The notes: generated by a model from the letters alone, not told the origin. Shown: positions 7,464 to 49,463, counted from the first letter of the stretch. The stretch is DNA of 64,000 nucleotides from Thermodesulfobacteriaceae bacterium (GCA_015494065.1 WGCA01000025.1:4396-68395); one strand, 5' to 3'. Translations and numbers: made by a program.

Positions 7464-8222
7464 TCAAGTAAGATGAGAAAGAGTCTCAGTTAAAATTTGT
7501 TGGAAGCTGGTCTTTTTTAATTGTTTTCCGTCATAAAAAAAGAGGGTGAAAGAAAGGGAAGGAAGGGCTCTGAGCTTTTCTATTACCTGGGGTAGGAGGT
7601 CACCCAGAAGGTCTTTGCCCATCTGGCCGTAAGCCCAGACCCAGAAAGCTCGTACGAATGGATCCGGGGAATCTATCAGGTGAAAGGCGTAGGCCGGGGC
7701 CTTGTATTCCTTGAGAAGGTGAGGAAATTCCTGGGCCAGCCGGCCGATACCCCAGATCACTCCGCGCTGGGCCGGGGGATATTCCAGATAATTGCCCTCC
7801 GGCCAGATATAAGAAATCAGGATAGAGGTGTATTCTTTGGCCAATTTTTCGTGGTTAGCCAGGGCCTCAGCCATGGCTTCCGGGACGCCCCAGGCCATAC
7901 CCCCCGACTCTTCGTTTAACATCCACATGAAGCGTCTGATGATAACCCGGGCGTGTTCTATGTCTTCACGGGCGATCTCTGCTACCACGACCCCTATGGC
8001 GGCCACCGCTTTCCAACGAACGGCCTCGTCCCGGTGACAAAGGGCGCCGATTAGCGGGTTTATGGCCTGCCGCGGGGGAAATTCCCGGATTTTTTCTTTG
8101 ATTAAGGGGAGGTCCTCCCTCTGTAAAAGGTGGAGGACCTCCTGCTTTAACGCACGGTGGGAAAAGGCCTTATGCACCACTCTTTCCTTTGATAGCTTGA
8201 GCGATACTCCGGCCCAGCTCAA
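7464..8222 (-). CDS. HEAT/ARM-like repeat protein of unknown function, co-oriented with fprA-dfx
   Basis: 252-aa ORF with helical repeat character (AINPLIGALCHRDEAVRWKAVAAIG...). It overlaps the fprA 3' end by 53 nt in another frame, so the start is uncertain. Confidence 0.4.
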   Translation of the reverse strand: MSWAGVSLKLSKERVVHKAFSHRALKQEVLHLLQREDLPLIKEKIREFPPRQAINPLIGALCHRDEAVRWKAVAAIGVVVAEIAREDIEHARVIIRRFMWMLNEESGGMAWGVPEAMAEALANHEKLAKEYTSILISYIWPEGNYLEYPPAQRGVIWGIGRLAQEFPHLLKEYKAPAYAFHLIDSPDPFVRAFWVWAYGQMGKDLLGDLLPQVIEKLRALPSLSFTLFFYDGKQLKKTSFQQILTETLSHLT

Positions 8223-9372
8223 AACACTCTTTGAGCTGGGCGTGAGTGGGAACGAACTTGACCCTGAGCCCCGGATGCACTATTTCGGCCTTCATTTCTT
8301 CTAAATATTTGTTGATATGTTTTACCGCCTCCCCGCTCCAGCCAAAAGAGCCAAAGGCGGCCCCTAGTTTTTTCCGCGGCCTAAGTCCCTTGATGTAGGT
8401 CAAGACGTCAGCCATCTGGGGCAGCATATTGTTGTTAAGGGTTGAGGAACCAAAAACCAGGGCCTTGGCCTCAAGGACCTGGGTCATGATGTCGCTCCGG
8501 TGATCAATGGAGGCGTTCATCACCTTTACGGAAACCCCTTCGGCCATGATCCCTTCCGCGATGGCGAGAGCCATCTTTTCGGTGCTGTGCCACATGGTGG
8601 CGTAAACTACCAAGGCATACTCCCGACCCTGATAAGTACACCAGCGCTTATAGGCCTCAAGGATATCCTTTATATGGGAACGCCAGATGACACCGTGGTC
8701 CGGCAGGATCATCTCGATCTCAAGCTTCATCTCCTCGACGGTCTGAAGTAGTTTTTCTACCTGGGGTGAGAAGGGCAAAACGATGTTGGCGTAATATTTG
8801 GCCGCTTCCTGCATAAGTTCGTCGTAACGGACCTCGTCGTCAAAGCGTTCACTGGTGGCATAGTGTTGCCCGAAGGCGTCCTGAGAAATAAGGATCTTCT
8901 CTTCTGGGAGGTAAGAGATCATGCTGTCTGGCCAGTGGATCATGCGGGTTTCGATAAACTTGACCTTCCTTTTTCCCAGCGAAATCTCATCCCCGGTCTT
9001 GACCTCCACCAGGGGCCAATCTTCCCGGTGGAAATGTTCCTTAAGCCCCTTGTATCCCATGGGGGAACAGAATATTTTCTCAGGCTTTACCCGTTCGATG
9101 ATCTCCGGCAGGGCCCCGGAATGGTCCATCTCCACGTGGTTGACCACCAGGTAAGAAATTTTTGCTGGATCACCCAGGACCTTTATTAAGTTATGGATCA
9201 GATCGCTGGCAAAGGGTTTTTTAACCGTATCAAAGAGGGTTATCTTTTCGTCAAGAACGAGGTAGGCGTTATACGTTGAACCCCTCTTGGTAGAATAACC
9301 GTGAAAGTCCCGGATGTTCCAATCAACCGCACCGACCCAGTAGATATCCTCTTTTATTTTGACTGGCGCCAT
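8170..9372 (-). CDS. fprA: Flavodiiron protein (FprA / rubredoxin:oxygen oxidoreductase type)
   Basis: Metallo-beta-lactamase-like diiron motif NHVEMDHSGA plus a C-terminal flavodoxin domain. The ATG at 9372 (MAPVKIKEDIYWVG) follows GGAGGGGG. The track's start at 9441 is an upstream extension. Confidence 0.9.
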   Translation of the reverse strand: MAPVKIKEDIYWVGAVDWNIRDFHGYSTKRGSTYNAYLVLDEKITLFDTVKKPFASDLIHNLIKVLGDPAKISYLVVNHVEMDHSGALPEIIERVKPEKIFCSPMGYKGLKEHFHREDWPLVEVKTGDEISLGKRKVKFIETRMIHWPDSMISYLPEEKILISQDAFGQHYATSERFDDEVRYDELMQEAAKYYANIVLPFSPQVEKLLQTVEEMKLEIEMILPDHGVIWRSHIKDILEAYKRWCTYQGREYALVVYATMWHSTEKMALAIAEGIMAEGVSVKVMNASIDHRSDIMTQVLEAKALVFGSSTLNNNMLPQMADVLTYIKGLRPRKKLGAAFGSFGWSGEAVKHINKYLEEMKAEIVHPGLRVKFVPTHAQLKECFELGRSIAQAIKGKSGA

Positions 9373-9428
9373 AATCCCCCTCCGTAAAAAGTCTTTGGGG
9401 GAGGCAAACCTCCCCCTAAAACCAGAGT

Positions 9429-9803
9429 TTAGGCCTTCCAAAGACCATGAAGGTTACAATACTCGCGGGCCGTCACCTTTTCCGCCTCAACCGGGAAAAA
9501 GGCCTCAGGGGCGTCCCCTGGGTTCAAAAACTGGATATAAGATTTACCGTCGGCCTGGAGTTCGATCCACTCGATGTAGTGCTTTTCTTCCATGGGATGC
9601 GGTACACTACCTACCTTTACTTTAAACCCTCCCTCGACCTTTTCGATCACCGGTACGTGCTTTTCCTGGGCGGCATCGGTAGTGTTTTCTTGCAATAATT
9701 CCATGGGCTGATTGCAACACACAAGCTGACCACGGCCAGCGTGCAAAACCATTACGATATTACCACAAATGTTGCACCGATAAACTTCAAGCTTCTGGGC
9801 CAT
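9429..9803 (-). CDS. dfx: Desulfoferrodoxin (2Fe superoxide reductase)
   Basis: N-terminal desulforedoxin motif CNICGN...LVCCNQPM. C-terminal SOR domain with HVPVIE...[13 protein letters not shown]...CNLHGLW. Confidence 0.95.
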
Positions 9804-21941: not shown

Positions 21942-22622
21942 CTATTTTTGCGAATTCATCTGTAGATCAGGCCTCTTACGCTCCCGCGGGCCACCATGGC
22001 CAGCCGGGATCCAGTTTTTGGCCGGAAAAATCTGGGAAAGCTTTTCCAGCTCCCCGCGGGCCTTAAGCCGCTCGTAAATCTGGTGCCATACACAGGGCAC
22101 CTCCGGCCTGATCTCACACTTTCCGTTCTGGGAACCCCCGCAAGGCCCATTCAAAAGATTCTTGGCACAGCGGGCGATGGGACAGAGTCCTCCGGTGAAA
22201 TCGATGATGCAATCCCCACAGCCCCGACACTTCTCTTCCCATTCCCCTAAAGCAGGGTTGGCCCCGTAAAAACTGGTATCCACCCCGGGATAGATCTTTA
22301 AATCCGGAAAAAGATCAGCCGCCAGATTAACCCCCACTCCGCAGGCCAGGGACACCACCGCTTCTACCTTTTCCTTGAGTTCCCCAAGCGGGGTCAGATA
22401 TTCCGGATCACACTGCCGCACAAAGGTGTCCTCAACGGTTTTAAGTGGGCGTCCTTGCCTTTTACGCGCCAGCCGCAAGGCCGCCGCCAAAATCTCCACC
22501 TCGCGGTCCCCACCCGCGGAACAAATGGCCACGCAGCCCCGGCAACCAATGACGGCGATGCGTTCAAAGGGCTCTATCATCTGAAGGATTCTCTTAATGG
22601 GTTTTCTTTCTGCAATGATCAT
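21942..22622 (-). CDS. metV: Methylene-THF reductase small Fe-S/Zn subunit MetV
   Basis: 226 aa, Cys-rich: VIGCRGCVAICSAGG, CRGCGDCIIDFTGGLCPIARC, NGPCGG. Immediately upstream of metF. Confidence 0.8.
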   Translation of the reverse strand: MIIAERKPIKRILQMIEPFERIAVIGCRGCVAICSAGGDREVEILAAALRLARKRQGRPLKTVEDTFVRQCDPEYLTPLGELKEKVEAVVSLACGVGVNLAADLFPDLKIYPGVDTSFYGANPALGEWEEKCRGCGDCIIDFTGGLCPIARCAKNLLNGPCGGSQNGKCEIRPEVPCVWHQIYERLKARGELEKLSQIFPAKNWIPAGHGGPRERKRPDLQMNSQK

Positions 22623-23014
22623 GAGGAAGTCTCCCCTTTTGCCGAAATCTCAAGCAAGGTTTCAAAGGTCCTCTTGGCCGCCTCCACCAAGGCCCCTGTA
22701 TCAAGACGGGGGACAAAGGCCATCTGTACCCGCTCAGGCGAAAGCCCAATCTCCTCAAGGATTTTCCGGGCCGCCTCTACCCTCTTTTCTGCCCGCAGAC
22801 TGCCGGTGTTGTTATGACAGCTTCCCTTCTCGCAACCCGCCACCAGCACCGCCCCGGCGTCTTCCTCCAAGGCCCGTAAAATGTCTACCACCTCGATCCG
22901 CCCGGAGCAGGGAAACCGCTTAATCACCACCTCTGCGGGGATGTCCGCTACGTCCTGAGCGGTGGCCTCGTTGGTATAATGGCAACAGAGAATAGCTAAC
23001 TTTAGCTGAGACAT
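22619..23014 (-). CDS. mvhD: MvhD/FlpD-family protein (Cys form)
   Basis: 131 aa: ILCCHYT...FPCSGRIEVVDILRALEEDAGAVLVAGCEKGSCHNNTG. Confidence 0.8.
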   Translation of the reverse strand: MSQLKLAILCCHYTNEATAQDVADIPAEVVIKRFPCSGRIEVVDILRALEEDAGAVLVAGCEKGSCHNNTGSLRAEKRVEAARKILEEIGLSPERVQMAFVPRLDTGALVEAAKRTFETLLEISAKGETSS

Positions 23015-23019
23015 CTACC

Positions 23020-23577
23020 CTACCCCCCTACCACCATGACCGCCATTTCAGGCGCGGTTTTCAGTTCGATAGCCCGGGCGGGACATTCCACCACGCAAAT
23101 CCCACAGGCCTGACACTTTTCAGGATCGATTACGGCGTAACCCTCTGAAACAATGCGCGGTGCCCCGAAGGGGCAGGTGCGCACACAGGTAAGACAAGCG
23201 ATACACTTACCCGCCTCCACCCGGGCCAAACGCCCGGTTTCAAAGCGCAGTTCAAGGGCCCGGGCCGGATCTTCCTGCGCAACCAGGCCTTTGAGCGCCT
23301 TAATCACTTCCATGGGTTTTACGTCCATGGGACAGACCGGCACACAGGAGCCACAGCCGGAACATTTCCAGATGGTGTCTCCGGCAAGCAACCGCTCCTT
23401 AAGCCCCAATAAAACCCCGTGCACTATGACCCGGGGGTCAAAATCTTCGGCCACTTTTTCTACCGGGCACACCCCGGAGCAGGCCCCACAACGGAAACAC
23501 TGGGCCAGCGTCTCAGGGGCCCCGGTGTTTATCAATTCCCCCGCCAGATGGGGATCGCGACCCTTAAGCTCTATCAT
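23020..23577 (-). CDS. Iron-sulfur protein: HdrC-like N-terminal half fused to a 2x[4Fe-4S] ferredoxin half
   Basis: CFRCGACSGVCP...CSGCGSCVPVCP (HdrC-like spacing), then CIACLTCVRTCP...CQACGICVVECP. Confidence 0.7.
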   Translation of the reverse strand: MIELKGRDPHLAGELINTGAPETLAQCFRCGACSGVCPVEKVAEDFDPRVIVHGVLLGLKERLLAGDTIWKCSGCGSCVPVCPMDVKPMEVIKALKGLVAQEDPARALELRFETGRLARVEAGKCIACLTCVRTCPFGAPRIVSEGYAVIDPEKCQACGICVVECPARAIELKTAPEMAVMVVGG

Positions 23578-23580
23578 CTC

Positions 23581-24339
23581 CTACTCCTTTGCCTTGGGTT
23601 GCCAAAGCTTTCCCTGTTTTTCCACCTGCCCTCTTTTGGAAAGAGCCTCCAAAATAGGCACGATATCTTCCTGGGTTGCCCCTGTTTTTTGAAGCAACGT
23701 CTCAATAGAGACGGGCCCCTTGCCCAAGAGGGCCTTGACCTCGGCCTCAAGAAGTTCTTTTTTGATAAGGGGCACGAGCTTTTCCTCCACCCGCCGGGAT
23801 ATACCTTCGGGACTGTAATCACCGGCCCTTTTTAATTCCCGGGCTAAGTTCCCGTAAGCCGCCCGGAAACGACTTTTAGCGGTAAGCTGGCGTGCTGCCG
23901 CAAGCCGCAGCTTGATCGTCTCCCAATCAAGCCCTTCCGGCTCGCCGAGGGGGCCGAGCTTTTTGATGGTCTCCGTAAAGTCCGTGACGATCTTTACAAA
24001 AAGCGGGGCCTCCGCCGCAGAGGCCCAGTCAATCCGGAAACGCTCCACCTTCAAACCTACTAACTCCAGGATCCTCCTGGTTACCTCCGCCATCAAAAGG
24101 GCTTCGTAATTACCAGACTGGTAATGACACTCGCCCAGATGTCACCCCCCAACCAGCACTCCGTCCGCACCGACGTAAAAGGCCTCCAGGATAAAACGTG
24201 GATCAATACGGCCCGTACACATCACCCGAATGACCCGGTTGTTGGGGGGATACTGGTAACGGGCCACCCCCGCCGAATCCGCCGCTGCGTAACAGCACCA
24301 GTGACAAAAAAAGCTCAAAATCTTGGGCTCAAAACTCAT
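23581..24339 (-). CDS. mvhD: Selenocysteine-containing MvhD/FlpD-family protein with a C-terminal winged-helix-like extension (252 aa including U66)
   Basis: Track ORFs 24142..24339 and 23581..24096 are in frame (759 nt). The junction is [31 protein letters not shown], where the paralog has AGCEKGSCHN. The tail [36 protein letters not shown] looks like a wHTH. Confidence 0.8.
24109..24125 (-). promoter_or_regulatory. SECIS-like hairpin downstream of the mvhD UGA
   Basis: Minus strand: UGA, 16 nt, then AUUACC-AGUCU-GGUAAU (perfect inverted repeat ATTACCAGTCTGGTAAT). Confidence 0.45.
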
Positions 24340-24351
24340 AAACCCACCCCT

Positions 24352-27300
24352 TTAAGCCGCTTCTTCACCGGCTTTTTCTTTTTCAAGTTCTTTTTCCACA
24401 AAGGCCCCGAAGGCTTCTATCTGCGCCAAAATGGCCTCATCTGTGAAACCACCCATGCTGATGGCCAACACCGGACAGTGGGAGGCACAGATACCACAAC
24501 CTTTACACGATGCAGTAATCGTCTGGGCCTTTTTGCGTTTACCTACCTTGACCATCTCTATCGCCCCAAAGGGGCAAAGCTCGGCGCAGATGCCGCAGCC
24601 GATGCACTTCTTCTGATCCACCCGGGAGACAATGGGCGCCACTTCCACAAACCCTTTGGCCAAGGGGATCGCGGCCTTGGCCGCCGCCGCCCGGGCCTGA
24701 GCCAAGGTCTCGTCCAAGGGCTTTGGACCGTGGGCCAGCCCGCAGACGTAAACCCCTTCCACCGGGAGCTCAACCGGCATGAGTTTCACGTGCGCCTCAA
24801 GGAAAAAGCCGTCTCCCGTAAGTGGAGCCTTGATAACCTTTGAAAGCTCTTCGTTTTCTCCAGGCGCAATCCCCACCGAAAGGACTAGAAGATCGGCGGG
24901 AATCAGGAGTTCCTCTCCGAGCAGGGCGTCGTAAACCTTAACAAACTGGGCCTTGCCCTTTTGTACTAACTCCGGCTTGGCTTCCGGTTTATAGCGCAGA
25001 AAAATGACCCCGGAGTTGCGCGCCTCCCGGTAGGCGTCTTCGGAAAAACCGTAGGTGCGCATATCACGAAAGAGGATATAGACGTCCTTTTTGGGATATC
25101 TCTTCTTAATACGCAGGGCGTTTTTTACCGCCTGCTGACAGCAGAGCTTGCTGCAATAGTTTAAGTCGTCTCCCCGGGAACCCACACACTGGATCATCAC
25201 CACGCTACGGGCCCGGGCAAGCTTTCCGGCCTTGCCCTTAAGCTCCGCCTCAAGATCAAGCTGGGTGATAACCCGCTCGTTGGCCCCGAGGCCATAACGG
25301 TCCGGCCGGTGCTCTCTTCCACCGGTAGCCAGAATCACCACCCCGTGGTTAATCACCTCCGAGCCCTCTTCCTTCCTCAAAGTGGAGGTGAAATTTCCTA
25401 CGTAACCCGAAACGTTTTCCACCGTGGTGCCAGTAAAGACCTTTATCCTGGGGTGCTCTTCCACCTTGGTGATCAGGTCCTTTAAGATTTTTTGTGGGTC
25501 TTCCCCGGAGAGAAGACCGGTGACCCGACGCAGGTTCCCCCCAAGCTCGGCCTCTTTTTCCACCAGATAGACCTCAAAGCCTTGCTCCGCCACCGAAAGG
25601 GCCGCCTGAAGCCCTGCCGCCCCTCCGCCAATTACCAGGGCCGAAGGGGTCACTGAAACCTTTTGGAGCTCAAGCGGGGTGAGCCGTTTGGCCTTGGCCA
25701 CCGCCATCCGTACTTGATCTTTGGCCTTCTGGGTGGCGGCTTCGGGATCCTCGGCGTGTACCCAGGCACACTGGTCCCGGATATTGGCCATCTCAATGAG
25801 GGCCGGGTTAAGCCCCGCCTCCCTCAAAGTCTCCTGAAAGAGGGGCTCATGGGTCCTGGGACTGCAGGCCGCGATCACCACGCGGTTAAGCCGATTTTCT
25901 TTTATCTTTTTGACCAGTTCGTTTAAGGTGTCCTGAGAACAGGAATATAAGACGTCTTCGGTATAGACCACTCCAGGCAGGGTCGCCGCGTAGCGGGCTA
26001 CCTCTTTGACATCCACCACGCCGGCAATATTCACCCCACAGTGACAGACAAAGACCCCGATCCTCGCTTCTTCCCTTTCAAGCTCTTCGTCTTCGGGCGG
26101 AAATTCCTTGTGGACCGCGTCTTGCCCCCTGACCTCGGCCAAAAGTTCCGAACATTTGGCCGCCACTCCTTGGGCTTGGACCACGCTTTCTGGAATATCC
26201 TTGGGCCCCTGGAAGGCTCCGGCCACAAAAATCCCGGGCACGTTGGTCTCAAGCGGGGTGGCCACTTTGGTCTGGGCAAAACCGTAGTGGTTAAGCTCAA
26301 CCCCCAGGCGTTTGGCGAGTTCTTCGGCCCCCGCCGGGGCGTCAAGCCCCACCGAAAGGACCACCATATCGTAAAAATCCCGGTGCGTTCTTCCGTCTTC
26401 GGTTACGTAAGTCAGGGCCAGCTTGCGCCCTACCTGATCCACCCTAGGCACCCGGGCGTAGATCGTCCGGAAACCATACTTTTCCACTGCCCGGTTAAAG
26501 GCCTCGTCAAAACCCTTGCCCTGAGTCCTGATATCCATGAAGAAAAGGTCTATCTCAGCCTCTGGTAGGTGCTCTTTCACCACCGAGGCCTCTTTCATGG
26601 CGTACATGCAGCAGACCGAAGAACAATAACCGTTGCCGCAAGTGACATCCCGGGAACCTACGCATTGGAGAAAGGCGATGCGTTGGGGATGAGTAAAATC
26701 AGAGGGCCTTAGCACTTCCCCTTCCGTAGGCCCAGAGGCACAGGTCATCCTTTCCAGCTCAAGGCTGGTAAGGACGTCCGGGTACTTGCCGTAGCCGTAT
26801 TTCTCCAAGACTTCCTCCGGCACCCGGCCAAAGCCCAAGGCCAAAACCACCGCCCCCACGTGAAGCTCCCTCTCTTCCGGCTGCTGATCAAAAAAGATGG
26901 CGTTTGGCCCGCACACGTTGGCGCAGAGCTGGCAGCTCTCATGCTGAAGCCTCAAGCACTCTTTTTCGTCAAGGTAGTAAACCGTAGGGACAGCCTGGGC
27001 GTAATCTATCCGGGCCGCCTTGGTGAAGGTGAGACGCTCGTTATACTCGTCCACCACCTCTTTAGGACAATAGGTCATGCACATCCCACAGGAAGTACAC
27101 TTGTTTGGGTCTACGTAACGGGGTTTGACGTGAATTTTGGCCTTGAAATTACCCGGCTTGCCGGATAACTCCTTGAGCTCGGCCAAGGTTATAATCTCAA
27201 TATTGGGAGACCGACCGGCCTCCACCAGCTTGGGGGCCAGGATTCAGATACTACAATCGTTAGTGGGAAAAGTCTTATCGAGCTGGGCCATCACGCCCCC

Positions 27301-27423
27301 GATGGAGGCCTTCTTCTCCACCAGGTAGACGTAATATCCCAGCGCCGCAAGATCTAGGGCCGCCTGAACCCCCGTAATGCCTCCTCCTAGGACGAGAACC
27401 TTACCACTCTTTTTGTTTGCCAT
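24352..27423 (-). CDS. hdrA: Selenocysteine-containing, tandem-duplicated heterodisulfide reductase subunit A-like flavoprotein (1023 aa including U60)
   Basis: Manual translation from the ATG at 27423 gives [26 protein letters not shown]...[29 protein letters not shown], which continues into track ORF 24352..27225 (3072 nt, in frame). A second FAD module starts at [18 protein letters not shown]. Inserted and C-terminal ferredoxin domains are present. Confidence 0.85.
27206..27223 (-). promoter_or_regulatory. SECIS-like hairpin downstream of the hdrA UGA
   Basis: Minus strand: UGA, 20 nt, then GGAGGCC-GGUC-GGUCUCC (7-bp stem including one G-U pair, GGUC tetraloop as in the E. coli fdhF SECIS apical loop). 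Confidence 0.5.
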
Positions 27424-44457: not shown

Positions 44458-45618
44458 CTAAATAAGGCCTCTGCTTTCCATTACCGAGATGGCCATTTTA
44501 TAGAGGACCGTTATAATGAGGAAGCCTGCCGCGTAGATACCGATAGAAATCATAACCTCAGGAAAAGTGGGCATATACTCCGTAATGTGCTCCAAAGGGT
44601 TGGGGACAAAACCGCCTACGATGAGCCCCATACCCTTATCGATCCAGGTTCCGATCACCACCAGGAGACAGAGGAAAGGAAGAAGACCTAGGTTGTTACG
44701 GGTTTGAGGAATGACCAAGAGAACAGCCGCCGTAAGCATCAGGGCGTAGGAGGCCCACATCCAGGGCACCAATTTCATGTGCCCGTAAAGTCCGGCAAAT
44801 AGATATTTGAGTGAAATTTGGTGACTTGGGATACCGCTATAAAAAGCGGTGAAGAGTTCGCAGCCGAAGAGGAAAAGGTTGGCAAGCAGGGCGTAAGTTA
44901 TGGTCTTGGCCAGCGCCCGGATGGCCTTTTCTCCCGGATCAAATCGAGTAAAGGCCTTGACAATGTATATCAGGATCAAAAGCAACGCCGGTCCGGAACA
45001 AAAAGCTGAAGCCAGGAAGCGAGGGGCCATCACTGCGGTCAACCAGAAATGACGGCCAGGCAGACCGGCGTACAAGAAAGCCGTAACCGTATGGATGCTA
45101 AAGGCCCAAGGGATTGAGAGATAAATAAAAGGTTTGACCCAATCAGGATATTTGGTGCCTTTGTAAACAGCATGTAAGGCCGTCCAACCACAGATAAGAT
45201 TAAGCAAAAGATAACCGTTTAAGACGATCATATCGTAGAAGAGCATGGAGTGAGGGGTGGGGTGCAAAAGCACGTTGAAGAGCCGGTGCGTTTGACCGAT
45301 ATCCACCACGATGAAAAGGAGGCACATGGTAACAGCGCCGATGGCCAAAAACTCCCCAAAAATAGTAAGTTTTCCATATTCCTTATAATTATGAAGATAA
45401 TAGGGGAGGACCACCATCACCGCGGAGGCTGCTACTCCGACCAGATAGGTAAACTGGGCTACGTAGAAACCCCAGGAAACATCACGGCTCATCCCCGTGA
45501 TACCCAAACCATACTTTAGCTGCTTAAGGAAGAAGAAAAAGCCAACCAAAAAGACCGCCGCTAAAAAGAAAACCAGCGCCCAATACTTTTTACTCCCTAC
45601 TAAGGCCTTCTCTAACAT
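44458..45618 (-). CDS. dsrP: DsrP, NrfD/PsrC-like integral membrane quinone-interacting subunit
   Basis: 386-aa polytopic membrane protein that follows dsrO in M-K-J-O-P order. Confidence 0.8.
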   Translation of the reverse strand: MLEKALVGSKKYWALVFFLAAVFLVGFFFFLKQLKYGLGITGMSRDVSWGFYVAQFTYLVGVAASAVMVVLPYYLHNYKEYGKLTIFGEFLAIGAVTMCLLFIVVDIGQTHRLFNVLLHPTPHSMLFYDMIVLNGYLLLNLICGWTALHAVYKGTKYPDWVKPFIYLSIPWAFSIHTVTAFLYAGLPGRHFWLTAVMAPRFLASAFCSGPALLLILIYIVKAFTRFDPGEKAIRALAKTITYALLANLFLFGCELFTAFYSGIPSHQISLKYLFAGLYGHMKLVPWMWASYALMLTAAVLLVIPQTRNNLGLLPFLCLLVVIGTWIDKGMGLIVGGFVPNPLEHITEYMPTFPEVMISIGIYAAGFLIITVLYKMAISVMESRGLI

Positions 45619-45632
45619 AGGTACACCTCACC

Positions 45633-46433
45633 CTAAATTATATAGAAAACAGAAGGACCAGTTCCTAAATGTACTTTACGCCTGAGCGTAAAATGCTCCC
45701 GCAAAACTTTATTAATTTCGGAGTGGGGATCGGCCAAATCTCCCACCATAATGGCCCCATGTTTACAGGCCTCCACACAGGCCGGAAGCTTACCTTCGGC
45801 CAGGCGCTCTGTACAAAAAGTGCATTTCTCCACCACACCCTTCATCCGGGTGGGATAACGCGGATTAGGGTTTTTAATGTAAGGCCTGGGGTCTTCCCAG
45901 TTAAAGCTACGGGACCCATAGGGACAGGCCGCCATACAGAACCGGCAACCGATGCACCGGTGCATGTCCATCATCACGATCCCGTCTTCCCGTTTAAACG
46001 TGGCCTGGGTAGGACAGACCCTCACGCAAGGCGGATGCTCACAATGGTTACAAAGCACAATAAATTCGCGATCATGTAGATACTCGTCCAGGTACTCGTG
46101 CGCCGTGTCCGGAAAAGCGTGCTCAAACTCCTCTTTCCAGATCCACTTGATCTCGTGCTTTTTATTAGGGATCAAAGGTACGTTGTGCGCATGGTGACAC
46201 GCTTTAATACATTCCTCACACGGCTCATGTTTCTTACAAACCCTGGTATCAATTACCATGCCCCAGCGCCCCGCGGTAAGCGCCTTCTCTGAAGGCTTTA
46301 CCGCATAGGCCTTGACCTCCCCTTTGCTGAGGACCCCAACGGTGGCTGAGGCCCAAAGCCCGGCTAATGATGCGAAGCCGGCTGCTTTGAGGAAGCTTCT
46401 TCGGTCAAGCTTTTTACTTCTTTTGTCGCCCAT
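45633..46433 (-). CDS. dsrO: DsrO, periplasmic 4Fe-4S ferredoxin-like subunit with a Tat signal
   Basis: ATG at 46433 follows [38 protein letters not shown] twin-arginine signal. Several CxxCxxCxxxCP motifs. Confidence 0.85.
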
Positions 46434-46810
46434 CCTTTCTTCTCCTCCGGGGGAATGTGGCAATTCCAGCAATAGGGATGTGCCGCCACGTAATCGTGGC
46501 ACACATCACAAAACTTTTTCTTAGAAGTGTGACAACGCAAACATTCATTCTGGAGACTCATATTAATGAGCCGCCCTTCGGAATTAATGTAGACCCGCAT
46601 ATTGTTACGGACCACGTCATACCGCCACTTGCGCAGCAGCTTCATGTGCTCACGCCGCATAAACTCCTTAGATTCCACGCACTTTTTGTATTCCTTGGGC
46701 AGCTCAGGCTGCGGCTTGGGAGCCGCTTTACCAAAATTGGTCCAGAAAGGAACCGTAACAAAGAGAACAAAGGCTATTATTCCTGGAATGACTTTGCCGG
46801 CATCATGCAT
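46364..46810 (-). CDS. dsrJ: DsrJ, triheme cytochrome c
   Basis: N-terminal anchor plus three CxxCH motifs (CLRCH, CDVCH, CWNCH). The 3' end overlaps dsrO by 70 nt. Confidence 0.85.
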
Positions 46811-48437
46811 TTTCTTCTTCCTCCGGCTTTAAGGGTTGTTGACGCATATCCAAAGTCCGCGGACGTTCACCCGTCTTTTCATGCGGGAGTACCAAGGCGT
46901 TAGCCACCAGTTCGTGTACCCCGCACACCCCAACCTCAGGGGCCCAGTAATTCATAAGGGTGGGTAAGGCCGCCCGGTCAATGGCGCAGATACAGGCCAG
47001 CATGTTTACCCCATACTTGTCCCGTACGTATTGCACCGCGTTAGCCCGAGGAAAGCCTCCACGCATCCGCATCTCCATAAATTCGTCTGTATTCAAACCG
47101 GAGCCGCTGCCGCAACAGAAGGTCTTTTCCCGAATGGTGTTTTCTGGCATATCGTAAAAGTTATTGCACACGTGTTTCAGGATATAACGGGGCTCTTCAA
47201 AAAAGCCCATGCCGCGGGAAGGATTGCAGGAATCGTGGAAGGTGACCACGTATTTGTCGTTCCGGCTGGGATCTAGTTCGAGTTTTCCATGGGCGATGAG
47301 ATCGGCAGTAAACTCGCAGACGTGGATCATCTTAGTGGACTTGGCGTGCTCAAAGACCGTGCCAGTGATGGGGCTGCGCGGAACTTCCAGGTTTTTAGGC
47401 GCCGGCCCGGTGGCCGTGTCCATATACTGGTGTTTTACCCGCCACATGTGGCCACATTCACCACCGATGATAAAGCGCACCTTGAGACGCTCAGCCTCAT
47501 GGTAAATCTTGGCGTTGATCTTGGCCATGGCCTCGTGGGAGGTGAACAGCCCGAAATTACCACCCTCCGAGGCGTAAGTGCTCATGGTCCAGTCCAGACC
47601 AAGGTAATTAAACAAGATGATATAGCCCATCATGGTGTAGATACCGGGTTCGGCGAAATAGTCCCCAGAGGGGGTGACGAACAAGATCTCCGCCCCTTTC
47701 TTGTTAAAGGGGACCTCCATCTTGACCCCGGTCACTTCTTCAATATCCCAAAGGAGGTATTCGATAATCTCTTTGATGGTATGGGGCGGGATACCGATGT
47801 GGTTACCGATCTTGAAACAGTTCCTCACCGGCTCAAGGATCCAGTTGATATTACAACCTACCAGGTGGAGGAGCTCACGCCCCATCATGGTCACTTCGCA
47901 GGTATCAATTCCATAGGGGCAAAAGACGGAACAGCGACGGCATTCACTACACTGGTAGTAATAATAGAACCACTCTTTGATGACATCCTCATTTAGTTTG
48001 CGCGCCCCGGCCAACTTACCAAAAAGCTTGCCCTGCCAGGTAAGCTCACCTTTATAAATGGAACGCAACAACTCCGCCCGCAAAACCGGCATGTTTTTGG
48101 GGTCCCCTGAGCCGAGGAAATAATGGCACTTATCAGCACAGGCCCCGCAACGCACGCAGATATCCATGAACACCTTAAAGGAACGATACTTGGACAGCCG
48201 ATCCTTCATGCCCTCGATGATGATTTCCCGAAAATTGGAGGGCAATTTCCAGTCTTCATCCAGGGGAGACCAATCGCGGGGATTGGGAAAACCGATCTCT
48301 TCTACGATATTTTTCTTAGCTGGATAACAATATCTCCCCGGTTTAATCTCTGGTGGAATATCATCCATCCAGTCTTTCTCAGGGGGAGTCCAATCTATAC
48401 TTTTAATTAGCTCATCCGGTTTTGGAAGCTTAGCCAT
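46803..48437 (-). CDS. dsrK: DsrK, HdrD-like catalytic Fe-S subunit (CCG domains)
   Basis: CVRCGACADKCH, CSECRRCSVFCPYGID and the C-terminal CCG motif (FCCGSGSG). Confidence 0.9.
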   Translation of the reverse strand: MAKLPKPDELIKSIDWTPPEKDWMDDIPPEIKPGRYCYPAKKNIVEEIGFPNPRDWSPLDEDWKLPSNFREIIIEGMKDRLSKYRSFKVFMDICVRCGACADKCHYFLGSGDPKNMPVLRAELLRSIYKGELTWQGKLFGKLAGARKLNEDVIKEWFYYYYQCSECRRCSVFCPYGIDTCEVTMMGRELLHLVGCNINWILEPVRNCFKIGNHIGIPPHTIKEIIEYLLWDIEEVTGVKMEVPFNKKGAEILFVTPSGDYFAEPGIYTMMGYIILFNYLGLDWTMSTYASEGGNFGLFTSHEAMAKINAKIYHEAERLKVRFIIGGECGHMWRVKHQYMDTATGPAPKNLEVPRSPITGTVFEHAKSTKMIHVCEFTADLIAHGKLELDPSRNDKYVVTFHDSCNPSRGMGFFEEPRYILKHVCNNFYDMPENTIREKTFCCGSGSGLNTDEFMEMRMRGGFPRANAVQYVRDKYGVNMLACICAIDRAALPTLMNYWAPEVGVCGVHELVANALVLPHEKTGERPRTLDMRQQPLKPEEEENA

Positions 48438-48458
48438 GTCTACCCTCTCCGTTAAGGT

Positions 48459-49463
48459 TTATTTCTTTTCGTAACAATCTTCGTCTATGGGTTGGCCAGA
48501 CTCGATCAACTGCTCTTTAAACTCTTCCTGCCACTCACAATAAGTCTTAAACTTGGGCTTCTTCCACCAAGGCGCAGGCTGATGCCGTACGGCCCGGCTG
48601 TTGTTGGCCAAGTTCCTGGTAGGACTGAAGAAAACCCCGAGCATGTGGACCAGCTTGCTGAAAGGGAAATAGGCCATAAGGGCACTCAAGAAGAAGATGT
48701 GAATGTAGAAGATAACTCCTACCTGTGGGGCCTTGGGGTGAAAATGGACCAGCCCCAGGGTGAATTCTTTGACCTGGGTCACGTCTACCTTGAAGAAATG
48801 GCGCATAAGGATACCGGAAATAACCAGGCCGTAGATCATAAAGAGGGGAAGATAATCAGAAGCCAGAGAAATATAGCGTAGCTTGGGATCAGCCAACCGA
48901 CGCAGGAAAAGGAAGGTCAAAGCCGCAAGTATGACCACGTCCGTCATATAGAGATGGGGCAACCCGATGTGGAAGAAACTATCGATCTGATCCAGGATCT
49001 GGATAGGTTCAGGGACCGGATAGGAGAAAAATCGAAAGTGGCGGAGCAGAATGGTGAAAAAGGCGTAATGGAACGCAATCGCCCCCAACCAGAGCCATTT
49101 ATAAGAACCATAAATGAGGTTGGGGCCCTTGATCTCCGCCTTCAAGTTCCGGAAGAGACTCCGGAAGGCAAAGACTTCAAGGATCATGCGCAGGACCACT
49201 TCAAAATTGTTGTAGGGAGATTCTAAACGGCTGCGCTTGACCCAGCGAAAAGACTTCTGCTGGCCGCAAGTGGTCACGATGCGGAACGGTACCGGAATTT
49301 TGGCCCACTCTATCATCCGGTAAACCATCCCGATCAAAAAGACCAAAAAAGCCGCATACGGAATCACAATCCCAAAAAGACCCCTGAGGCCAGCAATCCC
49401 TACCCCAACGTAAACCACGATGACAAAGGCCAATACGGTGACTAATGCGAATACGGCGCCCAT
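48459..49463 (-). CDS. dsrM: DsrM, NarI-like membrane diheme cytochrome b
   Basis: 334-aa polytopic protein at the head of dsrMKJOP. Confidence 0.8.
   Translation of the reverse strand: MGAVFALVTVLAFVIVVYVGVGIAGLRGLFGIVIPYAAFLVFLIGMVYRMIEWAKIPVPFRIVTTCGQQKSFRWVKRSRLESPYNNFEVVLRMILEVFAFRSLFRNLKAEIKGPNLIYGSYKWLWLGAIAFHYAFFTILLRHFRFFSYPVPEPIQILDQIDSFFHIGLPHLYMTDVVILAALTFLFLRRLADPKLRYISLASDYLPLFMIYGLVISGILMRHFFKVDVTQVKEFTLGLVHFHPKAPQVGVIFYIHIFFLSALMAYFPFSKLVHMLGVFFSPTRNLANNSRAVRHQPAPWWKKPKFKTYCEWQEEFKEQLIESGQPIDEDCYEKK

Follow-up and report, generated by a model that had tools for sequence, protein, structure and literature searches.

A conserved gene cluster for a putative HdrA-dependent methylene-tetrahydrofolate reductase without HdrB in Thermodesulfobacteriota

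A 64,000-nucleotide stretch of DNA from a Thermodesulfobacteriaceae bacterium (GCA_015494065.1, WGCA01000025.1:4396-68395; hereafter the window, with positions counted from its first letter) carries six adjacent genes on its minus strand, hdrA, mvhD1, hdrCFd, mvhD2, metV, and metF::acsD, in the midst of genes of the Wood-Ljungdahl pathway. The sequence suggests, with a probability that we put at about one half, that the six gene products constitute a methylene-tetrahydrofolate (methylene-THF) reductase that depends on HdrA but dispenses with HdrB and would be a pared-down relative of the type IV MetFV-HdrABC-MvhD. The cluster is conserved and apparently represents an HdrB-less form of the Moorella and Sporomusa type IV reductase that had not been described before.

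The gene models were verified by translation and Pfam. hdrA (27423-24352) encodes a tandem HdrA of 1023 amino acids (aa) with an in-frame TGA at 27246-27244 (selenocysteine, Sec60), which was recognized by translation, Pfam, and alignment to archaeal HdrA. It is followed by mvhD1 (24339-23581), which encodes a long, Sec-containing MvhD of 252 aa (TGA at 24144-24142, Sec66; PF02662), and by hdrCFd (23577-23020), whose 185-aa product is a fusion of one half of HdrC with a ferredoxin, as found by Pfam, a PDB sequence match, AlphaFold, and Foldseek. Further downstream are mvhD2 (23014-22619; 131 aa; PF02662), encoding the cysteine (Cys) form of MvhD, metV (22622-21942; 226 aa; PF12225 at 1e-37), encoding the iron-sulfur subunit of a MetVF-type methylene-THF reductase, and metF::acsD (21914-19278; 878 aa; PF02219 and PF03599, and NCBIfam), encoding a MetF::AcsD fusion. 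The intergenic distances from hdrA to metF::acsD are 12, 3, 5, −4, and 27 nt in this order. The original prediction, the coordinates of which span hdrA to metV only with metF::acsD lying just beyond, had claimed this gene order and tight spacing, and both were borne out by translation and Pfam, with gaps of −4 to 27 nt. No NCBIfam model exceeded its cut-off for any of the five Hdr, Mvh, and MetV proteins. The closest named relative, as judged by HdrA, is Thermodesulfatator autotrophicus (83% identity).

In order to locate HdrB, which contains CCG domains (PF02754), precomputed PF02754 annotations of called genes were used together with a CCG-motif expression for which DsrK served as the positive control. 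No PF02754 match was obtained by Pfam in any protein of the cluster, and none was annotated in any called gene on the source contig within ±10 kb of it. When all six frames of the 64-kb window were scanned for CX(n)CCGX(n)CX(1-2)C, the only real gene retrieved was that of DsrK (46803-48437), located 19 kb away. Pfam called no CCG domain in DsrK at E ≤ 1e-4, and its status as a CCG protein is based on the motif. These results are in agreement with the earlier claims that no HdrB is encoded in the cluster and that DsrK is the only CCG protein in the window. In addition, no CCG-motif open reading frame was detected in the flanks of 87 related loci.

The gene neighborhood was then compared among related genomes, as had been proposed in the original prediction. 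Relatives of HdrCFd were scanned in one genome per species and were found to be encoded in at least 495 genomes; the best 80 loci, all of which belong to Thermodesulfobacteriota, were mapped by tblastn synteny. The order hdrA-mvhD1-hdrCFd-mvhD2-metV-metF was colinear and complete in 50 species-level genomes of this phylum (49 of the 80 mapped loci plus L006; type A), including cultured thermophiles such as Thermodesulfatator, Thermosulfurimonas, and Thermodesulfobacterium hydrogeniphilum. Ten more of the 80 loci were incomplete yet consistent with this layout, and one was rearranged, with acsE moved between mvhD2 and metV (L045, 5706-6590), which is the sole rearrangement of the block among the 80. 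The median gaps of type A range from 18 to 64 nt, and there was no space for hdrB within the block and no CCG gene within 10 kb in the 50 colinear genomes. Since the layout is colinear in so many species, the HdrB-less arrangement is a conserved architecture and not an assembly accident. The only type A gap longer than 300 nt, 953 nt between hdrA and mvhD1 in L052 (4037-4990), was considered as a site for hdrB and rejected, because it is a repeat-rich insertion. This insertion, which none of the other loci has, encodes a heptad-like tandem repeat (…EDVAVLKGDVAILK…).

The remaining 20 loci (type B; Desulfobulbaceae, Desulfocapsa, and similar taxa) contain hdrCFd-mvhD2-metV as a stand-alone operon with varying neighbors. 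No HdrA, MetF, or HdrB was found within 10 kb of these type B operons (L065-L087, L088, and L089). HdrCFd and MvhD2 accompany MetV in 80 of 80 loci. As a separate observation, a 543-aa fusion of MetF with a C-terminal MetV-like domain (DUF5981) is encoded at 4470-6101 of L086, and likewise in L058 and L064, 4-5 kb upstream of a stand-alone trio.

HdrA matches the solved archaeal HdrA structures as three permuted pieces, and both of its halves were aligned at the residue level to HdrA of M. thermolithotrophicus. Module 1 (aa 1-445) comprises a thioredoxin reductase (TrxR)-like flavin adenine dinucleotide (FAD) domain in which Sec60 takes the position of Cys197, together with an inserted 2×[4Fe-4S] ferredoxin domain, and lacks the N-terminal and C-terminal domains. 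Conversely, module 2 has the N-domain as well as the C-terminal ferredoxin domain and lacks the Cys197 equivalent and the inserted domain. In the whole chain, the N-domain cluster (which Sec60 bridges), the C-terminal ferredoxin domain, and the inserted ferredoxin domain each occur once; the single-chain HdrA retains exactly one copy of each archaeal electron route. E224/K277 of module 1 and E725/K767 of module 2 align to E356/K409 of M. thermolithotrophicus HdrA. Such a Glu/Lys pair at the flavin has been used, after Appel et al., as a mark of bifurcating flavins (PMC9430772). The features by which a bifurcating HdrA is recognized are all present: the Glu/Lys pair, the inserted ferredoxin domain as low-potential exit, and, with Sec60 in the role that Cys197 of the partner plays elsewhere, a completed N-domain cluster. 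The residue at the position of the hdrA TGA is Cys in 37 of 37 full-length homologues, and 83 others among the matches listed were mis-called with a start just after it; on these grounds, the TGA should clearly be read as a selenocysteine codon. RNA folding produced hairpins 3' of the three UGA codons of hdrA, mvhD1, and fdhAB, the z-scores of which were not significant.

The original prediction had read the tandem HdrA as a pseudo-dimeric bifurcating core in one chain. This tandem does not distinguish the cluster, because the Moorella and Sporomusa enzymes have a tandem HdrA as well. Tandem HdrA with complementary losses has already been described for HdrA3/4 of anaerobic methanotrophic archaea (ANME) and for the HdrA associated with the Moorella methylene-THF reductase (PMC9012536), and Sporomusa HdrA (101 kDa) also has two flavin sites (PMC9430772). 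A pairing of the two FAD modules with the two MvhD paralogs had also been suggested. In the archaeal structure, however, MvhD enters through the C-terminal ferredoxin domain of HdrA (PMC9012536), and the HdrA in this study has one such domain, which provides one canonical MvhD entry. Moreover, tandem HdrA occurs elsewhere with just one long MvhD, as in L005, L007, and Desulfurivibrio dismutans. The domain map of HdrA and the co-occurrence data therefore do not support two MvhDs serving two FAD modules, and this reading was rejected. In L005 (10001-16171), which is a Desulfurivibrionaceae metagenome-assembled genome (MAG), the tandem HdrA and a 200-aa MvhD are found beside HGD-D/BcrAD-type genes (2-hydroxyacyl-CoA dehydratase, activator-like), and in L007 (10001-17824), another MAG, the same pair is found beside a fused FdhAB of 1364 aa.

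Residues 11-103 of HdrCFd correspond to the cluster core of HdrC and were aligned to aa 11-108 of the 184 residues of HdrC by the PDB sequence match, whereas residues 115-175 form a 2×[4Fe-4S] ferredoxin domain and the C-terminal half of HdrC is absent. Sixteen Cys residues are invariant among 28 diverse homologues, from which four [4Fe-4S] clusters are predicted. An AlphaFold model of HdrCFd (pLDDT, the per-residue confidence score, of 89.8) gave HdrC chains as its top Foldseek matches, with root mean square deviations of 1.9-2.4 Å over approximately 105 columns, and its C-terminal third matched 2[4Fe-4S] ferredoxins. HdrCFd is thus distinct from the full-length HdrC of approximately 185-200 aa, consisting of the core and the C-terminal half, that is characteristic of type IV enzymes. 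In the crystal structure of Wagner et al. from 2017, the C-terminal half of HdrC reportedly wraps around HdrB.

MvhD2 shares 30% identity with the corresponding domain of MvhD1, and its gene overlaps the start of metV by 4 nt. With 14.4 kDa and a gene directly upstream of metV, it resembles the MvhD of Sporomusa, a likeness of size and synteny rather than one drawn from compared sequences. A profile search of 1.84 billion representative proteins retrieved at least five proteins of 319-352 aa (P0341, P0370, P0396, P0408, and P0403) in which an HdrC core, a 2×[4Fe-4S] ferredoxin domain, and MvhD form a single chain. These fusions are Rosetta-stone evidence that HdrCFd and MvhD2 work together. 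Judging from the natural fusions and from the stand-alone trio operons without HdrA, MvhD2 is to be grouped with HdrCFd and MetV rather than with the second FAD module.

MvhD1 consists of a FlpD/MvhD [2Fe-2S] domain (aa 7-129) with Sec66 and a C-terminal extension of approximately 120 aa that ends in a winged-helix-like part; its best NCBIfam match, below the cut-off, was the MvhD part of HdrA2. No Pfam match was obtained for the extension of this protein (window 23581-23960, minus strand). In some MvhD1 homologues, the extension matches winged-helix families in Pfam, including HTH_5, HTH_20, and TrmB. MvhD proteins of 250-270 aa with such an extension are widespread in Deltaproteobacteria and Syntrophaceae and also occur in one Promethearchaeota MAG.

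metF (PF02219) and metV (PF12225) are encoded together, separated by 27 nt, as is characteristic of type IV methylene-THF reductases. In MetF::AcsD, the reductase domain (aa 10-302) is followed by a Pro/Glu/Lys-rich linker of approximately 250 aa with weak tetratricopeptide repeat-like matches and by the small subunit of the corrinoid iron-sulfur protein (aa 581-877). metF::acsD is one uninterrupted open reading frame in 45 of 47 related loci, with products of 809-1073 aa. The fusion suggests a tethering of the reductase to the methyl group's acceptor, the corrinoid protein.

The sequences show the set of subunits with their cofactor-binding motifs, the strict conservation of the block, and the modular link between HdrCFd, MvhD2, and MetV; complex formation and electron flow are proposed from them. 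Based on these features, the enzyme is proposed to consist of two joined modules, a bifurcation hub of HdrA and MvhD1 and a MetV-specific wire of HdrCFd, MvhD2, and MetV. If the products form one complex, MvhD1 would pass electrons into HdrA at the only C-terminal ferredoxin domain, that of module 2, from where they would reach a bifurcating FAD, the E/K signature being kept at both flavin sites. In archaeal HdrA, the input runs from MvhD through the C-terminal ferredoxin domain and on into the FAD, one branch leads from the TrxR-domain cluster via HdrC to HdrB, and the other leads from the N-domain/Cys197 cluster via the inserted ferredoxin domain to ferredoxin (PMC9012536). By analogy, the high-potential electron could pass from the TrxR-domain cluster through the HdrC-like 2×[4Fe-4S] core, the fused ferredoxin domain, MvhD2, and the clusters of MetV to the flavin of MetF, and the high-potential end point would be the reduction of methylene-THF (−200 mV), with MetVF in place of HdrB and the heterodisulfide. 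[quoted passage not shown] The absence of Rnf has been reported for Thermodesulfobacteriales, Desulfobulbales, and Dissulfuribacterales (PMC10553843). Candidate donors are NAD(P)H or formate via FdhAB and H2 via an Mvh hydrogenase encoded elsewhere. A GltD-like NAD(P)H module, which sits inside HdrA in Moorella (PMC9430772), is located in the N-terminus of FdhAB at this locus, making FdhAB a candidate electron entry point. An association of this kind is known from Sporomusa, in which MetF and MetV pull down HdrA and MvhD (PMC9430772). The second acceptor or donor of the HdrBC type, which the original prediction had left unassigned, need not be missing in this scheme, because MetVF may act as the high-potential end point, with the HdrC half and the ferredoxin domain as the wire.

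Several points weigh against an HdrB-less bifurcating enzyme. The occurrence of the HdrCFd-MvhD2-MetV trio without a nearby HdrA in the 20 Desulfobulbaceae-type loci indicates that the trio does not need an adjacent HdrA in order to function. The pair of tandem HdrA and long MvhD is also found with other partners, namely FdhAB in L007 and D. dismutans and the HGD-D/BcrAD genes in L005. Ferredoxin was not the second acceptor for the Moorella enzyme, and no MetFV-Hdr enzyme has ever been demonstrated to bifurcate. The second FAD and the MvhD1 extension are left without a role in the proposed scheme, and relatives carry an hdrCBA-mvhDGA locus elsewhere (PMC4911364).

The most serious alternative, which we consider possible and clearly less probable than the scheme above, is that two systems share the operon, with HdrCFd-MvhD2-MetV-MetF acting as a non-bifurcating reductase fed by ferredoxin or another carrier and HdrA-MvhD1 serving an NAD(P)H-linked FdhAB in CO2 reduction, as proposed for D. 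dismutans. The 20 stand-alone trio operons are in line with this view, as are the positions of the tandem HdrA and long MvhD directly beside FdhAB in L007 and in D. dismutans, where the pair is co-expressed with Wood-Ljungdahl genes (PMC12142623). The gene string ends in fdhAB in 33 related loci, directly after acsE, and purified clostridial MetVF enzymes are proposed to use reduced ferredoxin without an Hdr subunit (PMC8515935, PMC8760232). FdhAB of the window contains an N-terminal 2Fe-2S domain, a Fer4_20 domain, a GltD-like NAD(P)H/FAD module, a 2×[4Fe-4S] domain, and a catalytic domain of the molybdenum/tungsten-bispyranopterin guanine dinucleotide (Mo/W-bisPGD) type. On the other hand, fdhAB lies eight genes downstream of hdrA-mvhD1 and behind a terminator-like hairpin, whereas hdrA-mvhD1 abuts the trio in 50 of 50 full loci (median, approximately 60 nt). 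In addition, at least four loci keep hdrA-mvhD1-trio-metF without fdhAB. One of them, L062, contains the operon from hdrA to acsE alone between the genes of valyl-tRNA synthetase (ValRS) and fructose bisphosphatase (FBPase), without fdh, cooS, or hdrB, and this self-contained operon ties HdrA-MvhD1 to MetVF and ACS. Furthermore, an HdrC-type core has no known role except for relaying electrons from HdrA-type or Qmo-type flavoproteins.

An unlikely possibility is a Wood-Ljungdahl supercomplex that is independent of ferredoxin and is made up of HdrA-MvhD1 and HdrCFd-MvhD2-MetV-MetF::AcsD, the genes of which are inserted between acsA and acsB. In it, one flavin would split the electron pairs of NAD(P)H, a mid-potential donor entering via the GltD-like module of FdhAB, sending one electron to methylene-THF (−200 mV) and the other to a low-potential reduction of CO2, either to formate at FdhAB (−430 mV) or to CO at CODH. 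If this were true, the exergonic step of the methyl branch would directly pay for an endergonic one.

An ordinary Moorella-type MetFV-HdrABC-MvhD with HdrBC supplied in trans, for example from an hdrCBA-mvhDGA locus, appears improbable. In Thermosulfurimonas dismutans, whose Wood-Ljungdahl cluster is the same (L020), hdrCBA-mvhDGA is indeed encoded at TDIS_0910-0915 (PMC4911364), and frequent lack of linkage between HdrABC and metFV-mvhD was assumed in a survey of bifurcating enzymes (PMC6085437). However, the T. dismutans locus is self-sufficient, with its own hdrA, hdrC, and mvhD beside a hydrogenase, while the cluster described here has its own HdrC-type core, with the rest of HdrC swapped for a ferredoxin domain, in an HdrB-less layout that is conserved across orders. 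Equally doubtful is a module that works chiefly in the opposite direction, confurcating electrons as a methyl-THF oxidase, for acetyl-CoA oxidation or redox balance in sulfur disproportionation rather than for CO2 fixation: the oxidation of methyl-THF by NAD+ or ferredoxin is a strongly endergonic reaction for which coupling is considered necessary (PMC9430772, PMC6295475), and DsrMKJOP is also encoded in the window, but the cultured relatives with the cluster (Thermosulfurimonas, Thermodesulfatator autotrophicus, and Caldimicrobium) are described as autotrophs with a reductive pathway.

The complete minus-strand gene string (32478-10557) consists of fhs, folD, cooS/acsA, hdrA, mvhD1, hdrCFd, mvhD2, metV, metF::acsD, acsB, acsC, acsE, and fdhAB. 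Upstream of hdrA are the Wood-Ljungdahl genes fhs (32478-30715), folD (30510-29608), and cooS/acsA (29546-27501), and cooS is located directly upstream of hdrA in 45 related loci. Downstream of metF::acsD are acsB (19297-17030), acsC (16996-15644), acsE (15612-14716), and the fused fdhAB (14645-10557; approximately 1362 aa; Sec TGA at 12194-12192). The start of acsB is probably the second Met, in which case its apparent overlap with metF::acsD vanishes. Within the string, terminator-like hairpins were found on the minus strand only 3' of fhs (30708-30691) and between acsE and fdhAB (14693-14670), the latter being strong; the whole scan yielded 38 terminator-like sites against 28.4 ± 5.4 expected, which is suggestive only. 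A consensus promoter scan was at chance level (9 found and 8.4 expected). Elsewhere on the minus strand of the window are a complete dsrMKJOP cluster (44458-49463) and, just past the fdh gene, a pair encoding a flavodiiron protein and a desulfoferrodoxin (8170-9803), which fit a strictly anaerobic, sulfur-metabolizing host.

The energy coupling of methylene-THF reduction is among the oldest open questions on the Wood-Ljungdahl pathway; which partner substrate the type IV enzyme uses and what role HdrBC plays in it were still unsettled as of 2026. The HdrB-less version, present in at least 50 species-level genomes including those of some cultured thermophiles, offers a simpler test object. If it bifurcates, methylene-THF would be the high-potential acceptor and HdrB would be dispensable. 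Such an activity may explain how CODH/ACS is supplied with reduced ferredoxin in autotrophs that disproportionate sulfur or reduce sulfate and are reported to lack Rnf. The HdrCFd/MvhD2/MetV trio provides a new and easily recognized genomic marker for the HdrB-less enzyme type.

The view of the original prediction that the cluster, in contrast to the Moorella-type complex, lacks HdrB was substantiated by comparison with known systems. hdrB or a CCG domain is present in the published Hdr-type methylene-THF reductase clusters of Moorella, Sporomusa, marine Chloroflexi, Hakuba Actinobacteria, 'Ca. Adiutrix', Seep-SRB1g, and 'Ca. Syntrophonatronum', and the cluster described here differs from all published Hdr-type clusters compared, each with hdrB. 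The four-type classification of methylene-THF reductases used in 2026 contains no HdrB-less class and calls the mechanism of type IV still not understood, and genome papers on the organisms that bear the cluster list only MetF and are silent on the Hdr and Mvh genes (PMC4911364). No description of an HdrB-less variant was found in the searchable literature; key reviews may nevertheless contain an earlier mention of such clusters. The nearest precedent, contained in a single sentence, is the metFV-hdrA-mvhD clusters of 'Ca. Syntrophoarchaeum', for which likewise no hdrBC is listed (PMC9012536, Chadwick et al. 2022); these are archaeal, and no HdrC-ferredoxin subunit or second MvhD was analysed.

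The type IV enzymes of Moorella thermoacetica and Sporomusa ovata share with the present cluster MetF and MetV, a gene for a small MvhD directly upstream of metV, an HdrA of similar size (111 kDa here and 101 kDa in Sporomusa) whose two FAD modules in tandem have lost the Cys197 equivalent and the N-terminal domain in a complementary manner, and a place within or beside the acs genes. They differ in that the present cluster contains no HdrB, its HdrC is cut to the core and joined to a 2×[4Fe-4S] ferredoxin domain, a second, long, Sec-containing MvhD is added, and MetF is fused to AcsD. Furthermore, the HdrA in this study keeps the inserted ferredoxin domain, whereas Sporomusa HdrA is reported to be without one, and it is devoid of the GltD/NAD(P)H insert of Moorella HdrA.

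The methanogen complexes MvhADG-HdrABC and FdhAB-MvhD-HdrABC (PDB 5ODC, 7BKB, and 8RVU) have in common with the present system all HdrA domains (40-60% local identity), the HdrC core fold, MvhD as a [2Fe-2S] adaptor, and a Sec in HdrA at the Cys197 position. In contrast to their homodimer, a single-chain pseudo-heterodimer is encoded here, with no HdrB and no heterodisulfide site; there are no hydrogenase genes in this window, and the terminal acceptor is presumably methylene-THF. The 'HdrL-like' tandem HdrA-MvhD-FdhAB of D. dismutans (PMC12142623) likewise combines an HdrA of the two-FAD kind with a long MvhD and a fused NAD(P)H-type FdhAB and has Wood-Ljungdahl genes beside it, but hdrA-mvhD abut fdhAB there and hdrCFd-mvhD2-metV-metF here. 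Finally, the type II MetVF of Clostridium ljungdahlii and similar organisms shares the MetF and MetV catalytic core and consists of MetVF alone, whereas four extra redox subunits are strictly co-conserved with MetVF in the cluster described here.

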